Source: a virus (Duplodnaviria; Heunggongvirae; Uroviricota; Caudoviricetes). From it: a stretch of DNA of 44,025 bases. Shown here in pieces: positions 19,210-23,387 of the stretch (its first letter is position 1; every line of letters starts with the position of its first letter). A program made the position numbers and the translations under genes. The notes beneath the pieces were generated by a model, which saw nothing but the letters and a program-made list of their open reading frames with translations, was not told the origin of the DNA and did not search any database. Where the stretch lies: the IMG/VR virus record IMGVR_UViG_2917408641_000004, one strand, 5' to 3'.

Positions 19210-19422
19210 TCATGAAAGGTAAACATTGGCAGCTGAAGGGCCACGCAGACCATTTATCCGGCAAAATTCCACGCGTAATCCGGTGGTAATTTCTTCTGCA
19301 TCGCGGAGATTGAGCGCTGAAACATGAAGCTGGACATCGATACGACCATCGGATGGGGTGATAAGACCCTTGCCGCTTTTGCCGTCAAAGGTTTTGACAA
19401 TTCCTGTCATTTTACGGGACAA
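19210..19422 (-). CDS. cspF: Cold-shock-like protein, CspF/CspH subfamily
   Basis: 70-aa product [40 protein letters not shown]; divergent from cspB as in the Qin prophage; cannot exclude cspH assignment. Confidence 0.75.
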
Positions 19423-19722
19423 AAAAATTCCTTAATACTGATAACTTGGCGCACTATACACACGTTCCTGAAGAAAGCTATAGTTTTTTGATGGGGTTGA
19501 AGATGGCTGGATGTCTAAAATAAACATTGCTTCATATGTTCAACTATGCGTTAATGATTGCGTCGGTTTGAAGAACAGACGATATACGAAGTAGTTTACT
19601 AAAGCAGTTCTCATTTCAGGTGTTATTCACTTATTCCTTCTTTGAGTCTCTCCAATTAAGTACGAAGTCGTTTCTGTTATACAAGCCATTTATGCCGAAA
19701 GGCTCAAGTTAAGGAATGTAGA

Positions 19723-19938
19723 ATGTCAAATAAAATGACTGGTTTAGTAAAATGGTTTAACGCTGATAAAGGTTTTGGCTTTATTTCTCCTGTTGATGGT
19801 AGTAAAGATGTGTTTGTGCATTTTTCTGCGATTCAGAATGATAATTTTCGAACCTTATTTGAAGGTCAAAAGGTTACCTTCTCTGTAGAGAGTGGTGCTA
19901 AAGGTCCTGCAGCAGCAAATGTCATAATTACTGATTAA
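19723..19938 (+). CDS. cspB: Cold-shock protein CspB
   Basis: 71-aa product [38 protein letters not shown]..; CspA-family RNP motifs. Confidence 0.8.
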
Positions 19939-20221
19939 AATTAATAGTTTGTCTGTATACGATAACGAAGAAGGCTGATGCCTGAGTGGAGATACAGACA
20001 GAGTGGTGAATATTGGATCTCTTTAATAAATAGTAAGGAGATCCAATACATGAAACAATGACCAGCATATTTGGCAATAACTTAATCAGGAAAAGTATGC
20101 TAACCATTGTGGTGAAGTGCAGGTTTGCTGCATGAATAGTTTTACAGCAGAAGCTAACTGCTAGCATAGCAAAACAAAGTGCGTAAGTGGATGACTCCCA
20201 CAAAAAGCACCACAATATTAA

Positions 20222-20242
20222 ACCCGCTCAGGCGGGTTTTTT
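20222..20242 (+). terminator. Rho-independent terminator downstream of cspB
   Basis: CCCGC-TCAG-GCGGG hairpin followed by TTTTTTATT. Confidence 0.6.
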
Positions 20243-20301
20243 ATTGTCTGCTTTAAATATGTTATTAAAATATAAAAAATACTTGTTACGAATAAAATCA
20301 A

Positions 20302-20472
20302 TCAAGCTACAGCTTTAAGATTTGTCTGGAATACTTTGTTGCAATGAGGGCAGATCAAAAGAGCACCTTTTTGTACTCTTGAAAAACTGTGTTCTGACTC
20401 TTGGGTGCAGTTTGGGCAGGAACATTTAACGAGATAATTACGGCGTGATTTTGAGTCTTTACGTTCTGACAT
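20302..20472 (-). CDS. Small zinc-ribbon protein
   Basis: 56 aa from ATG 20472 (AGGA upstream); two CxxC pairs (CPNC..CPHC). Confidence 0.4.
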   Translation of the reverse strand: MSERKDSKSRRNYLVKCSCPNCTQESEHSFSRVQKGALLICPHCNKVFQTNLKAVA

Positions 20473-20690
20473 AGGCTTTTCCTGTATAAATGGCCGTATA
20501 CAGTACACTAAATATGAAAACATATCTCGTATTATTATTTAATATATGATTTTCTTTTAAAATAATTACCCACATTTTTAATGTGTCTGTTTTTTAGCGC
20601 CGTTGAGAACAACGTTTGCTATAAAAACTAACCCATAGACTCCGATCTTTTCAAACATATTGCACCATCTGTGTACATCGGGGTGAGGAT

Positions 20691-20906
20691 ATGAAATCAA
20701 TGGATAAGTTAACAACAGGTATCGCCTATGGCACATCGGCTGGTAATGCTGGTTTCTGGGCATTGCAGTTACTCGATAAAGTAACTCCGTCACAGTGGGC
20801 TGCAATCGGTGTGCTGGGTAGTCTGGTTTTTGGCCTGCTGACATATCTGACAAACCTTTATTTCAAGATTAAAGAAGACAGGCGTAAGGTTGCGAGAAGA
20901 GAGTAA
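20691..20906 (+). CDS. Class II holin (phage 21 S-type pinholin)
   Basis: 71 aa; dual-start MKSM motif; two TM segments; sequence ..[58 protein letters not shown] typical of S21/EssD. Confidence 0.85.
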
Positions 20907-20910
20907 TCCA

Positions 20911-21462
20911 ATGACACAAGTCTATGAACTGGTTGTGAAAGGAGTCCGCAATTTTGAGAATAAAGTGGCGGTAACTGTAGCCTTACGGGACAAAAAACGC
21001 TTTGACGGTGAAATTTTTGACCTGGACATCTCGCTGGACCGTGTTGAAGGTGCCGCGCTGGAGTTTTATGAGGCAGCAGCGAGAAGGAGCATTAGACAGT
21101 TCTTCCTGGATGTTGCTGCCGGGTTATGTGAAGGGGATGAGCAGTCGCCGGAAAAGCGCCCCATAATTTTAGAGGCGCAGAATGTGTGGATAACCTACAA
21201 AGGAAAGCTACCGGGAAGAATTACTGGTTCTCTGAAGACGCCACCGACGGCATTGCGGTCAGAAAAAGATGATATTGAATCGCCCATTGAAAAACTGGAG
21301 GGCAGCGTCGCTGATCTGAATAAAAAATTGTCGGTGCTGATTCCTTCTGAAGATGAAAAAAAACGCCGCGATGAGCAGTTTGCGGCGTTTTACGATTATT
21401 GCATTGAAGTTACTCGCAGGAATTTTGTGAAGATTTTTGAGGAGGGTAAATCTCTTCAGTAA
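20911..21462 (+). CDS. Hypothetical protein inserted between holin and endolysin (YdfR/DUF1327-like by position)
   Basis: 183 aa from ATG 20911 just after holin stop; same strand as the lysis genes. Confidence 0.5.
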   Translation: MTQVYELVVKGVRNFENKVAVTVALRDKKRFDGEIFDLDISLDRVEGAALEFYEAAARRSIRQFFLDVAAGLCEGDEQSPEKRPIILEAQNVWITYKGKLPGRITGSLKTPPTALRSEKDDIESPIEKLEGSVADLNKKLSVLIPSEDEKKRRDEQFAAFYDYCIEVTRRNFVKIFEEGKSLQ

Positions 21463-21783
21463 GCTTAATGGCAGACGCTGCAATTAATTCAGGAAGGTCC
21501 GCAAGGTCATCTGTCAGTGGATATGATGAAAAATCGGCGGCAGTTCTGTTAAGAAGCGCTTTAACTAATTCCTTTTCCTTCTCCGGCAACAAGTTGATTA
21601 GAGCTACGACTGCTTGCCTGAGTGCGATTAAATCAGCAAAAGTTTGTTTTGGTAGATTTGTGTAATCCATAGTCACCTCTGTGTTTATCAGATTGACATC
21701 CTCCTCCCGCCAGTGCCCATCACTGGCGAGGTAAGATTTAACATATCCGGGGATTTGAAGCCGATAAATCCTGATAAATATCC

Positions 21784-22317
21784 ATGAACGTAAAAATCAG
21801 ATACAGCCTGTCGGCTGCTGTTCTGGCACTGATTGCCGCCAGTGCTCCTGCCCCTGACATTCTCGATCAGTTTCTGGATGAAAAAGAGGGGAATCACACC
21901 ACTGCATACCGCGATGGCTCCGGCATATGGACCATCTGTCGGGGAGCAACGATGGTGGACGGTAAACCTGTTATTCCGGGAATGAAACTGTCGAAGGAAA
22001 AATGCGCCCAGGTTAACGCCATTGAGCGGGATAAGGCGCTGGCATGGGTGGAGCGCAATATAAAAGTTCCACTGACCGAGCCACAGAAAGCCGGTATCGC
22101 GTCATTCTGTCCCTATAACATTGGCCCTGGTAAGTGTTTTCCGTCGACGTTTTATAAGCGGCTTAATGCCGGTGATCGTAAAGGCGCATGCGAGGCGATT
22201 CGCTGGTGGATAAAGGACGGTGGACGTGATTGCCGCATTCGTTCAAATAATTGTTACGGTCAGGTTATTCGTCGTGACCAGGAGAGTGCATTAACCTGCT
22301 GGGGGATAGAACAGTGA
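21784..22317 (+). CDS. Endolysin, phage lysozyme family with N-terminal signal/SAR-like segment
   Basis: 177 aa; hydrophobic N-terminus [23 protein letters not shown]; lysozyme-like core (..[10 protein letters not shown].., ..[18 protein letters not shown]). Confidence 0.8.
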
Positions 22318-22811
22318 ATCAGATATTCACGGTGATTTTGCTCGTGTTGGTAGGATTTGTCGTAGGTAATGTCTGGAGCGACAGAGGATGGCAAAAAAAA
22401 TGGGCGGAGCGTGATGCTGCCGAATTATCTCAAGAGGTAAATGTCCAATTTGCTGCTCGAATAATTGAACAGGGGCGAACTATATCCCGTGATGAGGCTG
22501 TTAAAGATGCACAACAGAAAGCCGCTGAAATTTCTGCCAGGGCTGCTGATCTGTCTGATAGTGTTAACCAGCTGCGTGCCGAAGCAACAAAATATGCCAT
22601 ACGCCTTGACGCAGCGCAGCATACCGCAAATCTTGCCGCTGCCGTCAGAGGCAAAACAACCAAAGCCGCCGAAGGAATGCTCACCAACATGCTCGGAGAT
22701 ATTGCAGCAGAAGCTCAGCTTTATGCTGAAATTGCTGACAAACGCTACATCGCAGGAGTGACTTGTCAACGGATTTATGAATCTTTAAGAGATAAAAAAT
22801 ATCAGATGTAG
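22314..22811 (+). CDS. Rz-like i-spanin
   Basis: 165 aa; N-terminal TM helix followed by coiled-coil-rich periplasmic domain; start overlaps endolysin stop. Confidence 0.75.
22507..22761 (+). CDS. Rz1-like o-spanin lipoprotein embedded in Rz (+1 frame)
   Basis: ORF in alternate frame within Rz; signal peptide with lipobox LTSC; proline-rich mature region ([18 protein letters not shown]); SD GAGG 9 nt upstream of ATG 22507. Confidence 0.6.
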
Positions 22812-23174
22812 ATTAATATTAAATCGGATTATTTTTAGCGCTGAATGTGAAATTTAAATAAAAAGGACTCTTCCATGAGTCAAAATCCTTGAAATCTTAA
22901 GGGTAAGATAAAAGGTCATTAGACAGAATGACACGTTTTATTAATAAATAAAGCTATTGTTTCATTCGTGTGTTTTTCTTTACAAAAGTAATCCTTGCTA
23001 TGGTTGGTTAATCATGCGTTAATGGTGTTCTGGTTTGTTACAAAATTATCTGAAGCAGTCATTGTTATAATTTTATTATTTGTACCTCTTGAGATTTCCT
23101 TGTTGGTTTTTCTCTCTGATATTTTTTTTCGGACCATTCTGCCCAAGGGCTAACTTCTTCAAAAGGTAATAATG

Positions 23175-23387
23175 ATGTCTAACAAAATGACTGGTTTAGT
23201 GAAATGGTTTAACCCTGAAAAAGGTTTTGGTTTCATCACGCCGAAAGATGGTAGCAAAGATGTGTTTGTCCATTTCTCAGCTATTCAGAGCAACGATTTC
23301 AAAACGTTAACTGAGAATCAGGAAGTCGAATTTGGTATTGAGAACGGACCTAAAGGCCCCGCGGCTGTTCATGTTGTGGCACTTTGA
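23175..23387 (+). CDS. cspI: Cold-shock protein CspI
   Basis: 70-aa product [70 protein letters not shown]. Confidence 0.8.

Follow-up and report, generated by a model that had tools for sequence, protein, structure and literature searches.

Why does the late region of a lambdoid prophage carry three cold-shock genes, and do they serve the phage or the bacterium? The question is raised by a 44,025-nucleotide stretch of viral DNA (IMG/VR record IMGVR_UViG_2917408641_000004; hereafter the window), in which an earlier note had described a cspF-like gene, cspB, and cspI in the late region. Very probably, these genes are conserved late-region cold-shock cargo of a Qin-type lambdoid prophage, flanking its lysis cassette. 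This cassette (essQ, ydfR, rrrQ, rzpQ/rzoQ) is intact, and csp genes bracket it on both sides (Table 1).

Table 1. Features of the late region and its two cargo intervals (positions in the window)
Feature	Position	Strand	Description and evidence
ydfT/quuQ	16342..17094	+	Late-gene antiterminator Q; lambda-Q family; PDB 7UBM (lambda Q) E 1.2e-35
AT-rich 1.6-kb segment	17135..18731		GC 29-40%; missing from K-12 Qin and phage 2H10
Candidate late promoter PR'	18820..18848	+	TTGCAT-17-TAAAAT, read from sequence
GC-rich hairpin	18894..18917		10-pair stem then T-rich tail (minus strand); predicted to terminate cspF-ynfS unit
ynfS	19066..19155	-	29-aa small ORF downstream of cspF; same as K-12 YnfS
cspF	19210..19422	-	K-12 cspF identity 100% aa and nt; NCBIfam NF012007
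cspB promoter and ~160-nt 5'UTR	19528..19722	+	99% to K-12; motifs common to cspA, cspG
cspB	19723..19938	+	97% to K-12 CspB; 100% to 2H10 and PhiR63_1 copies
Canonical intrinsic terminator	20220..20239	+	Between cspB and lysis genes; AAACCCGCTCAGGCGGGTTT then TTTATTG
ynfU	20302..20472	-	Zinc-binding small protein, antisense to late transcription; NCBIfam NF038384 E 1.7e-22
essQ	20691..20906	+	Class II holin (pinholin); annotation; 100% to phage copies
ydfR, long form	20911..21462	+	DUF1327; Pfam PF07041 E 7.8e-42; phrog_2091
Antisense 86-aa ORF	21410..21670	-	phrog_2572 E 1.3e-53; annotated WP_001557934.1
rrrQ	21784..22317	+	Endolysin (lysozyme); annotation; 100% to phage copies
rzpQ	22314..22811	+	i-spanin; annotation, collinearity with K-12
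rzoQ	22507-22761		Lipoprotein, embedded in rzpQ; lipobox LTSC
cspI promoter-proximal leader (5'UTR)	23017..23174	+	GCCCAAGGGC upstream-box hairpin; 98% to K-12
cspI	23175..23387	+	100% aa to K-12 CspI
ynfQ	23398..23586	+	YmcF-like cold-shock small protein, ATT start; Pfam PF23641 E 6.3e-33
cspI-ynfQ terminator	23594..23615	+	GGCTCC-TTCG-GGAGCT then T6; read from sequence
ynfN	23659..23889	+	phrog_3425; annotation
gnsB, frameshifted	24062..24235	+	A7 in place of A8
Match to genome ends (cos) of phage 2H10	24635..24636		Closes second cargo slot

Identity and transcription units of the csp genes

All three ORFs are real and lie where they had been placed. Their products exceed the cutoff for the single cold-shock domain of the CspA family (CSD; Pfam PF00313, ~70 aa), with E values of 5.6e-22 for CspF (70 aa), 8.4e-32 for CspB (71 aa), and 1.6e-31 for CspI (70 aa). 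Alignment bore out the names: CspF is 100% identical to K-12 CspF versus 77% to CspH, and scores 160 bits (cutoff, 111) in the NCBIfam CspF subfamily; CspB is 97% identical to K-12 CspB, from which it differs by Y42F and I55V, versus 77% to CspG and 76% to CspA; and CspI is 100% identical to K-12 CspI versus 79% to CspG. The three are exact orthologues of the named K-12 genes, and chance ORFs are excluded. One start needed correction, as the ATG at 23172 is an extra in-frame codon ahead of cspI that stems from a T->G change; the gene starts at 23175. The arrangement also agreed with the earlier description. cspF and cspB are divergent upstream of the holin gene, with a 300-bp intergenic region and with essQ starting 753 bp downstream of cspB, beyond the antisense ynfU, and cspI follows Rz, its start lying 363 bp past the rzpQ stop.

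Judged by comparison with K-12, cspB and cspI carry identical sigma-70 promoter motifs and ~160-nt leaders that are predicted to be cspA-type thermosensors. The cspB leader has a cold box at ~19565-19581 and a GCCGAAAGGC upstream box at 19694-19703. The Rfam cspA thermoregulator model (RF01766; gathering score 78) matches the cspB mRNA at 19562-20001 with 159.4 bits and the cspI mRNA at 23017-23433 with 109.8 bits, scores to which the coding sequence contributes part because the model covers the whole mRNA. Its alignment is poorer for the cspI leader than for the cspB leader, and the window scan gave no match for cspF. From the near-identity of the leaders with K-12, a temperature-dependent switch and cold induction of cspB and cspI would be expected here; both have been established experimentally for the K-12 genes (PMC4956666, PMC12360218). 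The K-12 cspB leader is under thermo- and Rho-control, cold antitermination occurs at cspI (PMC12360218), and cspI, ynfQ, and ynfN are induced together (PMC11228462). A passage in PMC7406224 quotes one study in which the cold response of these genes was absent in a pathogenic strain.

Each csp gene had been credited with a terminator of its own. Hairpins followed by T-runs do appear to close the cspF-ynfS, cspB, and cspI-ynfQ units, but not directly behind each csp gene. For cspF, the hairpin (18917-18894, minus strand) is placed 3' of ynfS; for cspB, the closest canonical hairpin and T-run begins 282 nt 3' of the gene, which gives this unit a 280-nt tail; and downstream of cspI, ynfQ starts after 11 nt and is followed by a terminator that overlaps a ynfR remnant with a premature stop and whose minus-strand mirror was found by the terminator scan. 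On the plus strand, the hairpin at 18894..18917 is possibly a candidate tR'. We infer from its motif, which is kept directly after Q in K-12 and 2H10, that 18820..18848 may be the late promoter PR'; it fell below the pass mark in the consensus promoter scan.

Of the several RNA chaperones that this cargo was suggested to contribute, CspB and CspI fit the description but CspF does not. The nucleic-acid-binding aromatic surface of CspA (RNP1/RNP2) comprises W11, F12, F18, F20, F31, H33, F34, and Y42, and its melting activity requires F18, F31, and H33 in particular. All eight positions are kept by CspB and CspI (with Y42 replaced by F). CspF keeps two of the eight, F12 and H33, and has T11, K18, L20, Q31, V34, and A42 at the others; with three aromatic residues versus eight in CspA, it does not qualify by its aromatic surface as a CspA-type RNA chaperone. 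Its pN/pS is ~0.1. On these residue and substitution patterns, CspF is a CSD protein that is conserved and under selection but whose aromatic RNA-binding surface has been lost, and its role is probably not classical RNA melting. In the literature, the function of CspF is given as unknown (PMC6719143, PMC4956666), CspA/CspD target mRNAs are unaffected by CspF, and overexpressed CspB accumulates poorly and has little effect on CspA targets (PMC11648934).

We also considered whether these CSD proteins could be retron-like anti-phage defence effectors that protect the lysogen from superinfection. Defence genes are frequent in prophage cargo slots, and there are weak matches to PADLOC CSD_V (E 2.6e-15 for CspB and 9.3e-06 for CspF) and to the NCBIfam retron Se72 effector (NF038236; 54 and 22 bits). 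However, scores of 22-54 bits lie far under the curated NF038236 cutoff of 82 and under the CspA/CspB/CspF family scores, the block holds no reverse transcriptase or msr/msd-like neighbour, and the proteins match K-12 Csp proteins of known cold-shock regulation. A defence role is highly improbable.

A Qin-type prophage with two cargo slots

The likeness to the Qin prophage proved stronger than had been claimed. Positions 1-1179 of the window are 99% identical to the intQ end in K-12 and begin 18 bp within the Qin boundary as annotated. This intQ-end sequence starts 169 bp past rspB in strain SC487; rspB itself is outside the window, and the Qin site (next to rspB/ynfP) was judged from the intQ end and SC487. 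Rfam detected the Qin markers DicF and sok at 72.5 and 115.3 bits, respectively, and BLAST blocks are collinear with K-12 Qin through intQ, dicF, dicB, hokD/sok, ydfU, and Q (ydfT), whose orthologues in matching loci are annotated as antitermination protein. Given this collinearity from intQ onward and the markers DicF, dicB, and hokD/sok, the window is more than Qin-like: it is a prophage of the Qin type, integrated at the Qin attachment site.

The order ydfT-ynfS-cspF-cspB-ynfU-essQ-ydfR-rrrQ-rzpQ/rzoQ-cspI-ynfQ-ynfR-ynfN-gnsB of K-12 Qin (b1559-b1550) is shared by the window, as are orientation and attachment site, at 92.7-95.9% nucleotide identity over the block. Unlike K-12 Qin, the window has the 1.6-kb AT-rich insert between Q and ynfS, flanked by diverged copies of the Q 3'-end (17037-17170 and 18735-18870), and a 658-bp segment that gives rise to the long ydfR (183 aa versus 103 aa in K-12) and contains the antisense 86-aa ORF, for which neither Pfam nor PADLOC gives a match. 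Its gnsB is frameshifted and its ynfR truncated. The window retains integrase, exonuclease, terminase, capsid, and tail genes, which K-12 Qin has lost. The earlier view of a structurally more complete phage is therefore correct relative to K-12 Qin (terminase, capsid, tail), but the element is defective: a 984-bp in-frame deletion lies within the portal gene, and there are three IS elements, a nested IS66/IS4 insertion and an IS256-family transposase after J. The prophage is fuller than K-12 Qin yet defective.

Both cargo slots are filled by AT-rich moron islands, the Q-to-S slot by ynfS, cspF, cspB, and ynfU and the Rz-to-cos slot by cspI, ynfQ, ynfN, and gnsB. GC content is 29-46% in the first and 30-40% in the second, compared with 44-54% in the lysis genes and ~50% in the flanking genes; the csp islands have two attributes of morons, a position between conserved phage genes and an atypical base composition. 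Known lambdoid morons in these slots are stx at Q-S in Stx phages and bor at Rz-cos in lambda. Like them, the window islands are cargo of odd base composition in the Q-S and Rz-cos intervals, and, with predicted promoters and terminators of their own, they would be independently transcribed. Whereas stx and bor are toxin and serum-resistance cargo, the window carries cold-adaptation genes (csp, ynfQ, gnsB), and the Stx phages in the collection have the lysis genes alone in common with it, at ~81-84% identity. Of these cargo families, gnsA/gnsB increase unsaturated fatty acids and rescue low-temperature growth (bioRxiv 10.1101/2024.03.27.586906).

Occurrence of the block and selection on its csp genes

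A csp block inside a fuller phage is not a new combination, as the isolated phages 2H10 (NC_049950, Glaedevirus) and PhiR63_1 (PV340573) carry the same 4.8-kb block at 98.9-99.6% identity, with EssQ, RrrQ, CspB, and CspI 100% identical. The 2H10 annotation lists three 'cold shock protein' genes at positions as in the window, and HannyBb, PhiR42_1, and Tritos are further isolated temperate phages of this group. Its members differ from the window, which is defective, in their lambda-type head genes, early regions, and integrases; the window instead combines an HK97-like protease-capsid fusion with an early region of Qin/DicB type. Of 5426 complete E. coli genomes, 1387 (~26%) have the block together at a single location, and its gene order is kept in 80/80 IMG/VR loci. 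K-12 annotation has long listed cspB, cspF, and cspI as Qin genes flanking the lysis cassette. The block is thus already known and widely shared in Qin-type E. coli prophages and isolated phages, which makes the three csp genes an accurate but ordinary observation; their presence in complete phages was already visible in deposited genomes and adds little.

That the csp genes are ancestral host genes beside a decaying prophage rather than phage cargo is practically untenable. Such a history would fit the cryptic state of K-12 Qin and the chromosomal location of the homologous cspH-cspG island, which nearly all E. coli genomes have. However, the genes lie inside the element, in its Q-S and Rz-cos intervals, and are also found elsewhere on the chromosome, for example at yjjG/prfC in strain A32. 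Their location within the packaged linear genomes of 2H10 and PhiR63_1 refutes this origin.

By analogy with published K-12 work, cspB and cspI would be transcribed in the lysogen from their own promoters, repressed at 37 C via leader structure and Rho, and induced on cold shock and in long-term stationary phase, supplying the host with redundant CspA-type RNA chaperone and antiterminator capacity. In K-12, cspB and cspI are cold-induced and a quadruple csp deletion is cold-sensitive (PMC4956666), and competition in long-term stationary phase needs both genes (PMC7406224). Cold-induced cspB transcription would be stopped by the terminator at 20220 before it reaches the holin gene. In lytic growth, RNA polymerase that starts just past Q and is modified by Q would pass the terminators of the csp units, and the late transcript would then carry cspB and cspI in sense, with cspF and ynfU antisense to it.

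Because cspB and cspI would lie in sense in a Q-dependent late operon, CspB and CspI made in lytic growth could aid lysis and morphogenesis mRNAs, and the csp genes might serve the phage, by melting late-mRNA structure or assisting read-through at low temperature. We regard this as unlikely, although there are points in its favor: both genes are co-oriented with the late genes downstream of Q, viable phages retain all three csp genes at 100% protein identity, gene order is unchanged in 80/80 viral contigs, inhibiting replication in K-12 induces cspI, ynfQ, and ynfN (PMC11228462), and CspA-family proteins are able to act as transcription antiterminators (PMC11228462). However, the three csp genes are still intact in K-12 Qin, which is without morphogenesis genes, and the two cspI genes differ by 9 synonymous and 0 nonsynonymous changes; islands without any phage genes also keep csp genes. 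This retention points to selection in the host. Moreover, the csp genes have what appear to be their own cold-regulated promoters and leaders, and among the lambdoid and Stx phages that share these lysis genes, most are without csp genes.

We favor cargo that serves the lysogen. Substitution patterns show strong purifying selection on the csp genes, stronger than that on the spanin gene. They persist in K-12 Qin, in the half-decayed window element, and in phage-free Citrobacter islands, and the window is a clean example of prophage cargo outliving its phage.

The chromosomal cspH-cspG island

The cspH-cspG-ymcF-ymcE-gnsA island, nearly universal in E. coli and also present in other Escherichia species, has the same layout as the window: a divergent cspF/H-type and cspA-type pair, then ymcF/ynfQ and gnsA/gnsB homologues. 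Unlike the window, it is without ynfU and lysis genes and has a single chimeric csp gene; an unrelated ymcE occupies the ynfN slot, and nucleotide identity is only ~75%. The upstream region of cspG resembles cspB (73%) and its downstream region cspI (67%). In the window, cspB and cspI lie on either side of the lysis cassette as repeats in the same orientation, 83.5% identical over their first 115 nt. Recombination between such a pair would remove ynfU together with the holin, endolysin, and spanin genes, and the cspB-5'/cspI-3' chimera left behind would be equivalent to cspG. An in-silico cspB x cspI recombinant aligns to cspG-ymcF in one piece across the junction, so the island may be a lysis-deleted copy of the module. 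In one Citrobacter island the lysis genes are gone, though a 56-nt rzpQ relic remains, and a cspB/cspI-hybrid locus is present in C. sedlakii. We give slightly less than an even chance to the idea that the chromosomal island is a collapsed, lysis-deleted copy of such a phage late region. We infer both the direction of the cspB x cspI event and whether it occurred once or several times. No statement of this model was found in the literature searched, and it is possibly new.

If the model is true, a major E. coli cold-shock gene, cspG, would be domesticated phage cargo, and the csp repeats would be a built-in route to disarm a prophage. Should both cspG and cspH derive from the module, domesticated phage cargo would make up part of the core cold-shock regulon of E. 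coli, which could matter for studies of how the cold-shock response evolved.

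Identity of the cold-shock genes and of the prophage that carries them

The ORF list and the sequence contain three cold-shock-domain ORFs where the earlier note had placed them, and all three proteins match the Pfam CSD family (E-values 5.6e-22 to 8.4e-32). In global alignments to reference proteins translated from the K-12 record, CspF and CspI are 100% identical to their K-12 namesakes and CspB is 97% identical (Y42F, I55V), with the next-best paralogues at 77% (CspH for CspF; CspG for CspB) and 79% (CspG for CspI). NCBIfam also assigns the first ORF to the CspF subfamily with a score above the cutoff. 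Because identity to K-12 lies far above that to the next-best paralogues and NCBIfam agrees on CspF, the names cspF, cspB, and cspI proposed earlier are correct. The earlier note had named placement in other Csp subfamilies as the result that would speak against it, and the K-12 alignment did not give that result. Chance or mis-called ORFs are ruled out by the identity to K-12 proteins, and wrong subfamily names by the alignment and NCBIfam together; a CSD effector of a defence system or retron was rejected as well, with only sub-threshold matches and no RT. The cspI ORF has an extra first codon because a T-to-G change places a new ATG one codon before the K-12 start.

The likeness to Qin, the cryptic lambdoid prophage of K-12, proved stronger than had been claimed. 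When the window was compared by BLAST with the K-12 Qin region, collinear blocks in reverse orientation were found; two Qin markers, the DicF sRNA and the sok antisense RNA of hokD, are present; and in strain SC487 the same sequence starts 169 bp past rspB. These findings make the window a Qin-type prophage located at the Qin site, beyond mere resemblance. The best single place in the complete Escherichia coli collection covers just 78% of window 1-25000, and the element is thus a mosaic.

The description of a structurally more complete phage holds relative to K-12 Qin, since the window is fuller and retains integrase, exonuclease, terminase, a protease-capsid fusion, tape measure, and J, but the prophage is defective. 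Compared with two reference prophages, the portal gene lacks an internal stretch of 984 bp, lost cleanly and in frame, with 174 of 502 codons left, so head assembly should fail. A 4.1-kb insertion between rem and ydfU, with the 8-bp target duplication GGCTTTTC at both sides, is an IS66-family element with an IS4-family transposase gene nested inside it, and an IS256/Mutator-family transposase gene directly follows the tail-tip gene J. From 42723 onwards the window no longer resembles the reference prophages, and the lom and side tail fibre genes are therefore missing or displaced.

Coordinates of features in the window
Feature	Position	Strand	Details
BLAST match to K-12 Qin	1-1179		end of intQ, 99%; starts 18 bp inside annotated Qin boundary
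BLAST match to K-12 Qin	3364-5044		ydfE-dicB-dicF region
DicF sRNA	4775-4826	-	Rfam 72.5 bits, above gathering score
BLAST match to K-12 Qin	5669-6951		dicA/dicC
sok antisense RNA	9995-10169	+	Rfam 115.3 bits, above gathering score
BLAST match to K-12 Qin	10150-10768		hokD/rem
IS66-family element	10769-14898		tnpA/B/C at 12602-14875
IS4-family transposase	11147-12475	-	nested
BLAST match to K-12 Qin	14906-17135		ydfU/ydfT
ydfT	16342-17094		Q antiterminator; first in order
AT-rich segment	17135-18731		bordering copies at 17037-17170 and 18735-18870
Tail-anchored ORF	18255-18539	-	61-94 aa, phrog_11629
BLAST match to K-12 Qin	18731-21116 and 21774-24237		csp and lysis block
Candidate PR'	18820-18848		TTGCAT-17-TAAAAT
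Terminator, hairpin and T-run	18917-18894	-	after ynfS
cspF	19210-19422	-	70 aa
cspB	19723-19938	+	71 aa
Long imperfect hairpin	~19952-20001		cspB tail
Terminator, hairpin and T-run	20220-20239		282 nt after cspB
Segment replacing ydfR 3' end	21116-21774		658 bp
86-aa ORF, antisense	21410-21670		phrog_2572
cspI	23172/23175-23387	+	71/70 aa
ynfR	23589-23654		premature stop Y13*
Terminator, hairpin and T-run	23594-23615		after ynfQ
gnsB	24062-24235		A7 in place of A8; truncated to 43 aa
Portal gene	28143-28667		deletion junction 28401/28402
IS256/Mutator-family transposase	42817-44025	-	Pfam E 1.2e-117

Gene order and transcription of the late region

From ydfT, the order runs through an AT-rich 1.6-kb segment, ynfS (-), cspF (-), cspB, ynfU (-), and the holin gene essQ, followed by a long form of ydfR, the antisense 86-aa ORF, the endolysin gene rrrQ, the spanin genes rzpQ/rzoQ, cspI, ynfQ (11 nt on), a truncated ynfR, ynfN, and a frameshifted gnsB. 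GC content is 29-46% at 17000-20700 and 30-40% at 22700-24500, with 44-54% in the lysis cassette between; the csp-bearing segments are thus two AT-rich islands filling the Q-S and Rz-cos intervals, which flank that cassette. Both are classical lambdoid cargo slots, occupied by stx and bor in other phages. The genome ends of phage 2H10 map to window 24635/24636. A search of the Q-S slot for tRNA genes, as in Stx phages, found none.

Several small neighbours differ from K-12. The 1.6-kb segment occurs in phage PhiR63_1, not in K-12 Qin or 2H10, and encodes the tail-anchored ORF and small hydrophilic ORFs. Diverged copies of the Q 3' end with its post-Q sequence lie on both sides of it; a true direct repeat around it was rejected, as there is only a diverged ~75% copy that self-BLAST did not detect. 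The 658-bp segment substitutes for the K-12 ydfR 3' end, yielding a YdfR of 183 aa (phrog_2091), and contributes the antisense ORF within the lysis cassette; the long YdfR form was scored in 20 of the 80 IMG/VR loci examined, about one quarter. The 86-aa ORF, long YdfR, and the 94-aa ORF have no Pfam or PADLOC match, only function-unassigned PHROGs, and a defence role for them was set aside on the Pfam and PADLOC result. The gnsB base loss and the ynfR stop could be real decay or homopolymer sequencing error.

Identity to K-12 is 99% for the promoter and leader of cspB and 98% for the sequence upstream of cspI. The cspB promoter has elements common to cspA and cspG (a TTGC-type -35 and a TG-extended TTAAT -10), as does its leader (a cold box and the GCCGAAAGGC upstream box). 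The Rfam cspA thermoregulator model matches the cspB mRNA at 159.4 bits and the cspI mRNA at 109.8 bits (gathering score 78), with no match at cspF. Because this model also spans the coding region, the near-identity of the two leaders to K-12 is the stronger evidence.

The positions of the three terminators predict the transcription units cspF-ynfS, cspB, and cspI-ynfQ. The earlier statement that each csp gene has its own terminator is only roughly right, as the terminators lie after ynfS, after ynfQ, and 282 nt past cspB. About 280 nt (19939-20239) separate cspB from its first canonical terminator, and the long imperfect hairpin in its tail is aligned by Rfam to the cspA 3' stem. The terminator at 20220 would shield the holin gene from cold-induced cspB transcription. 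Since YdfT is a lambda-Q family protein (PDB 7UBM, E 1.2e-35), polymerase that is modified by Q and starts immediately past the Q gene would be expected to read through the csp terminators, and the late transcript would then have cspB and cspI in sense, with cspF and ynfU antisense to it. We infer that the candidate site is the late promoter PR'; it failed a generic promoter scan and sits in the post-Q sequence copy that K-12 and 2H10 keep directly after Q.

Function of the Csp proteins and selection on their genes

In K-12, cspB and cspI are cold-induced, and a quadruple csp deletion is cold-sensitive, with cspB contributing to the phenotype (PMC4956666). Temperature and Rho control the cspB leader, and cold-dependent antitermination acts at cspI (PMC12360218). 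Long-term stationary-phase competition requires both genes (PMC7406224), cspI, ynfQ, and ynfN are induced jointly (PMC11228462), and gnsA/gnsB raise unsaturated fatty acids and rescue low-temperature growth (bioRxiv 10.1101/2024.03.27.586906).

The earlier note took the prophage cargo to supply several RNA chaperones. That reading suits CspB and CspI, each of which keeps 8 of the 8 CspA nucleic-acid-binding positions, but in CspF, F12 and H33 are the only ones left, and the protein has 3 aromatic residues compared with 8 in CspA; the label is not supported for CspF. CspF and CspH are described as proteins of unknown function with few aromatic residues and very low expression (PMC6719143, PMC4956666), and their overexpression had little effect on CspA/CspD targets (PMC11648934). 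The CspF clade has no solved structure. Relative to the Citrobacter prophage copies, cspF has a pN/pS of ~0.10-0.14, indicative of purifying selection, and its product is therefore useful in some way. Between the window and K-12, cspI carries 9 synonymous and 0 nonsynonymous differences and rzpQ 12 and 17, respectively; this and the fact that K-12 Qin still has all three csp genes favour a host benefit over a purely phage-side role.

Distribution and the chromosomal cspH-cspG island

The 4.8-kb csp and lysis block is present in one place (coverage of at least 80%) in 1387 of 5426 complete E. coli genomes. A CspF relative is encoded by 236 IMG/VR viral contigs, and in all 80 loci fetched from these the order Q through gnsB is the same, as far as the contigs extend. 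Five isolated phages carry the block: PhiR63_1 (99.6%), 2H10 (98.9%), HannyBb, PhiR42_1, and Tritos; EssQ, RrrQ, CspB, and CspI are 100% identical in the window, 2H10, and PhiR63_1. In contrast, for Stx phages and the majority of other lambdoid phages in the collection, similarity to the window is confined to the lysis genes. Because isolated phages carry the block, the RefSeq annotation of 2H10 lists "cold shock protein" three times, and a PHROGs "cold shock protein" family exists, matched by CspF, CspB, and CspI alike, three csp genes in a complete phage are already on record.

We compared window stretches 19423-19837 and 23290-23620 with the K-12 island cspH-cspG-ymcF-ymcE-gnsA (locus L004, 2464-3741), which has its counterparts in two separate places of the window. 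At 76% identity, the stretch from cspF across the intergenic region to the start of cspB corresponds to cspH, its intergenic region, and the first 115 nt of cspG; cspG-ymcF matches cspI-ynfQ at 75%, and gnsB is matched by gnsA. Sliding and group-wise comparisons found cspG to be cspB-like on its 5' side and cspI-like on its 3' side: identity to cspB and cspI is 73% and 41% upstream, 59% and 70% over CDS positions 100-210, and 18% and 67% downstream. The window's own cspB and cspI form a direct repeat, with 83.5% identity over the first 115 nt. An in-silico cspB x cspI recombinant gave a one-piece alignment to cspG-ymcF across the artificial junction (query 75-660, 76% identity, E 2e-73), and did so in ~5285 E. 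coli records, those with the best place in the 60-80% identity band. Recent collapses of this kind, at 90% identity or more, were found in none of the 5426 E. coli genomes.

Across species, a graded series leads from the full prophage block to cspF-cspB-ynfU alone. The full block occurs in Citrobacter pasteurii and Citrobacter sp. FP75; in C. meridianamericanus (L035, 5053-7092) the island stands alone and comprises a cspF'/'cspB fusion, ynfU, an rzpQ relic, and cspI-ynfQ-ynfN-gnsB; C. sedlakii (L014, 5353-6223) has cspF adjoining a decayed cspB/cspI hybrid and ynfQ; and several genera have cspF-cspB-ynfU only. The relic, between ynfU and cspI, is 56 nt of the rzpQ 3' end, 80% identical to window 22676-22731. 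Both the C. meridianamericanus and C. sedlakii islands are phage-free, with csp cargo kept and lysis genes lost. In Salmonella enterica subsp. diarizonae and arizonae, a lone cspF/H-type gene lies ~1.3 kb from a gene for a lom/pagC-like outer-membrane protein (32-33% identity to 2H10 Lom), also of a lambdoid cargo family.

The two architectures are most simply connected by a single recombination between the csp repeats, which would remove the lysis genes; we infer the direction of the event. The comparison suggests that the cspH-cspG island may be a copy of a Qin-type late region from which the lysis genes were deleted. One-step collapse from exactly the window's module predicts homology between YnfN and YmcE, and there is none; because of this non-homologous slot gene and the ~75% identity, the window's own module is ruled out as donor, and the donor would be a relative of it. 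The collapse model was not found stated in the literature searched; older csp papers outside that literature may discuss the cspB-cspF/cspG-cspH duplication. The earlier interpretation of the csp genes holds for the most part, with corrections on CspF function, terminator placement, and prophage defectiveness. The csp feature itself is known already and common, and the proposed chimeric origin of cspG is the sole lead that might be new.
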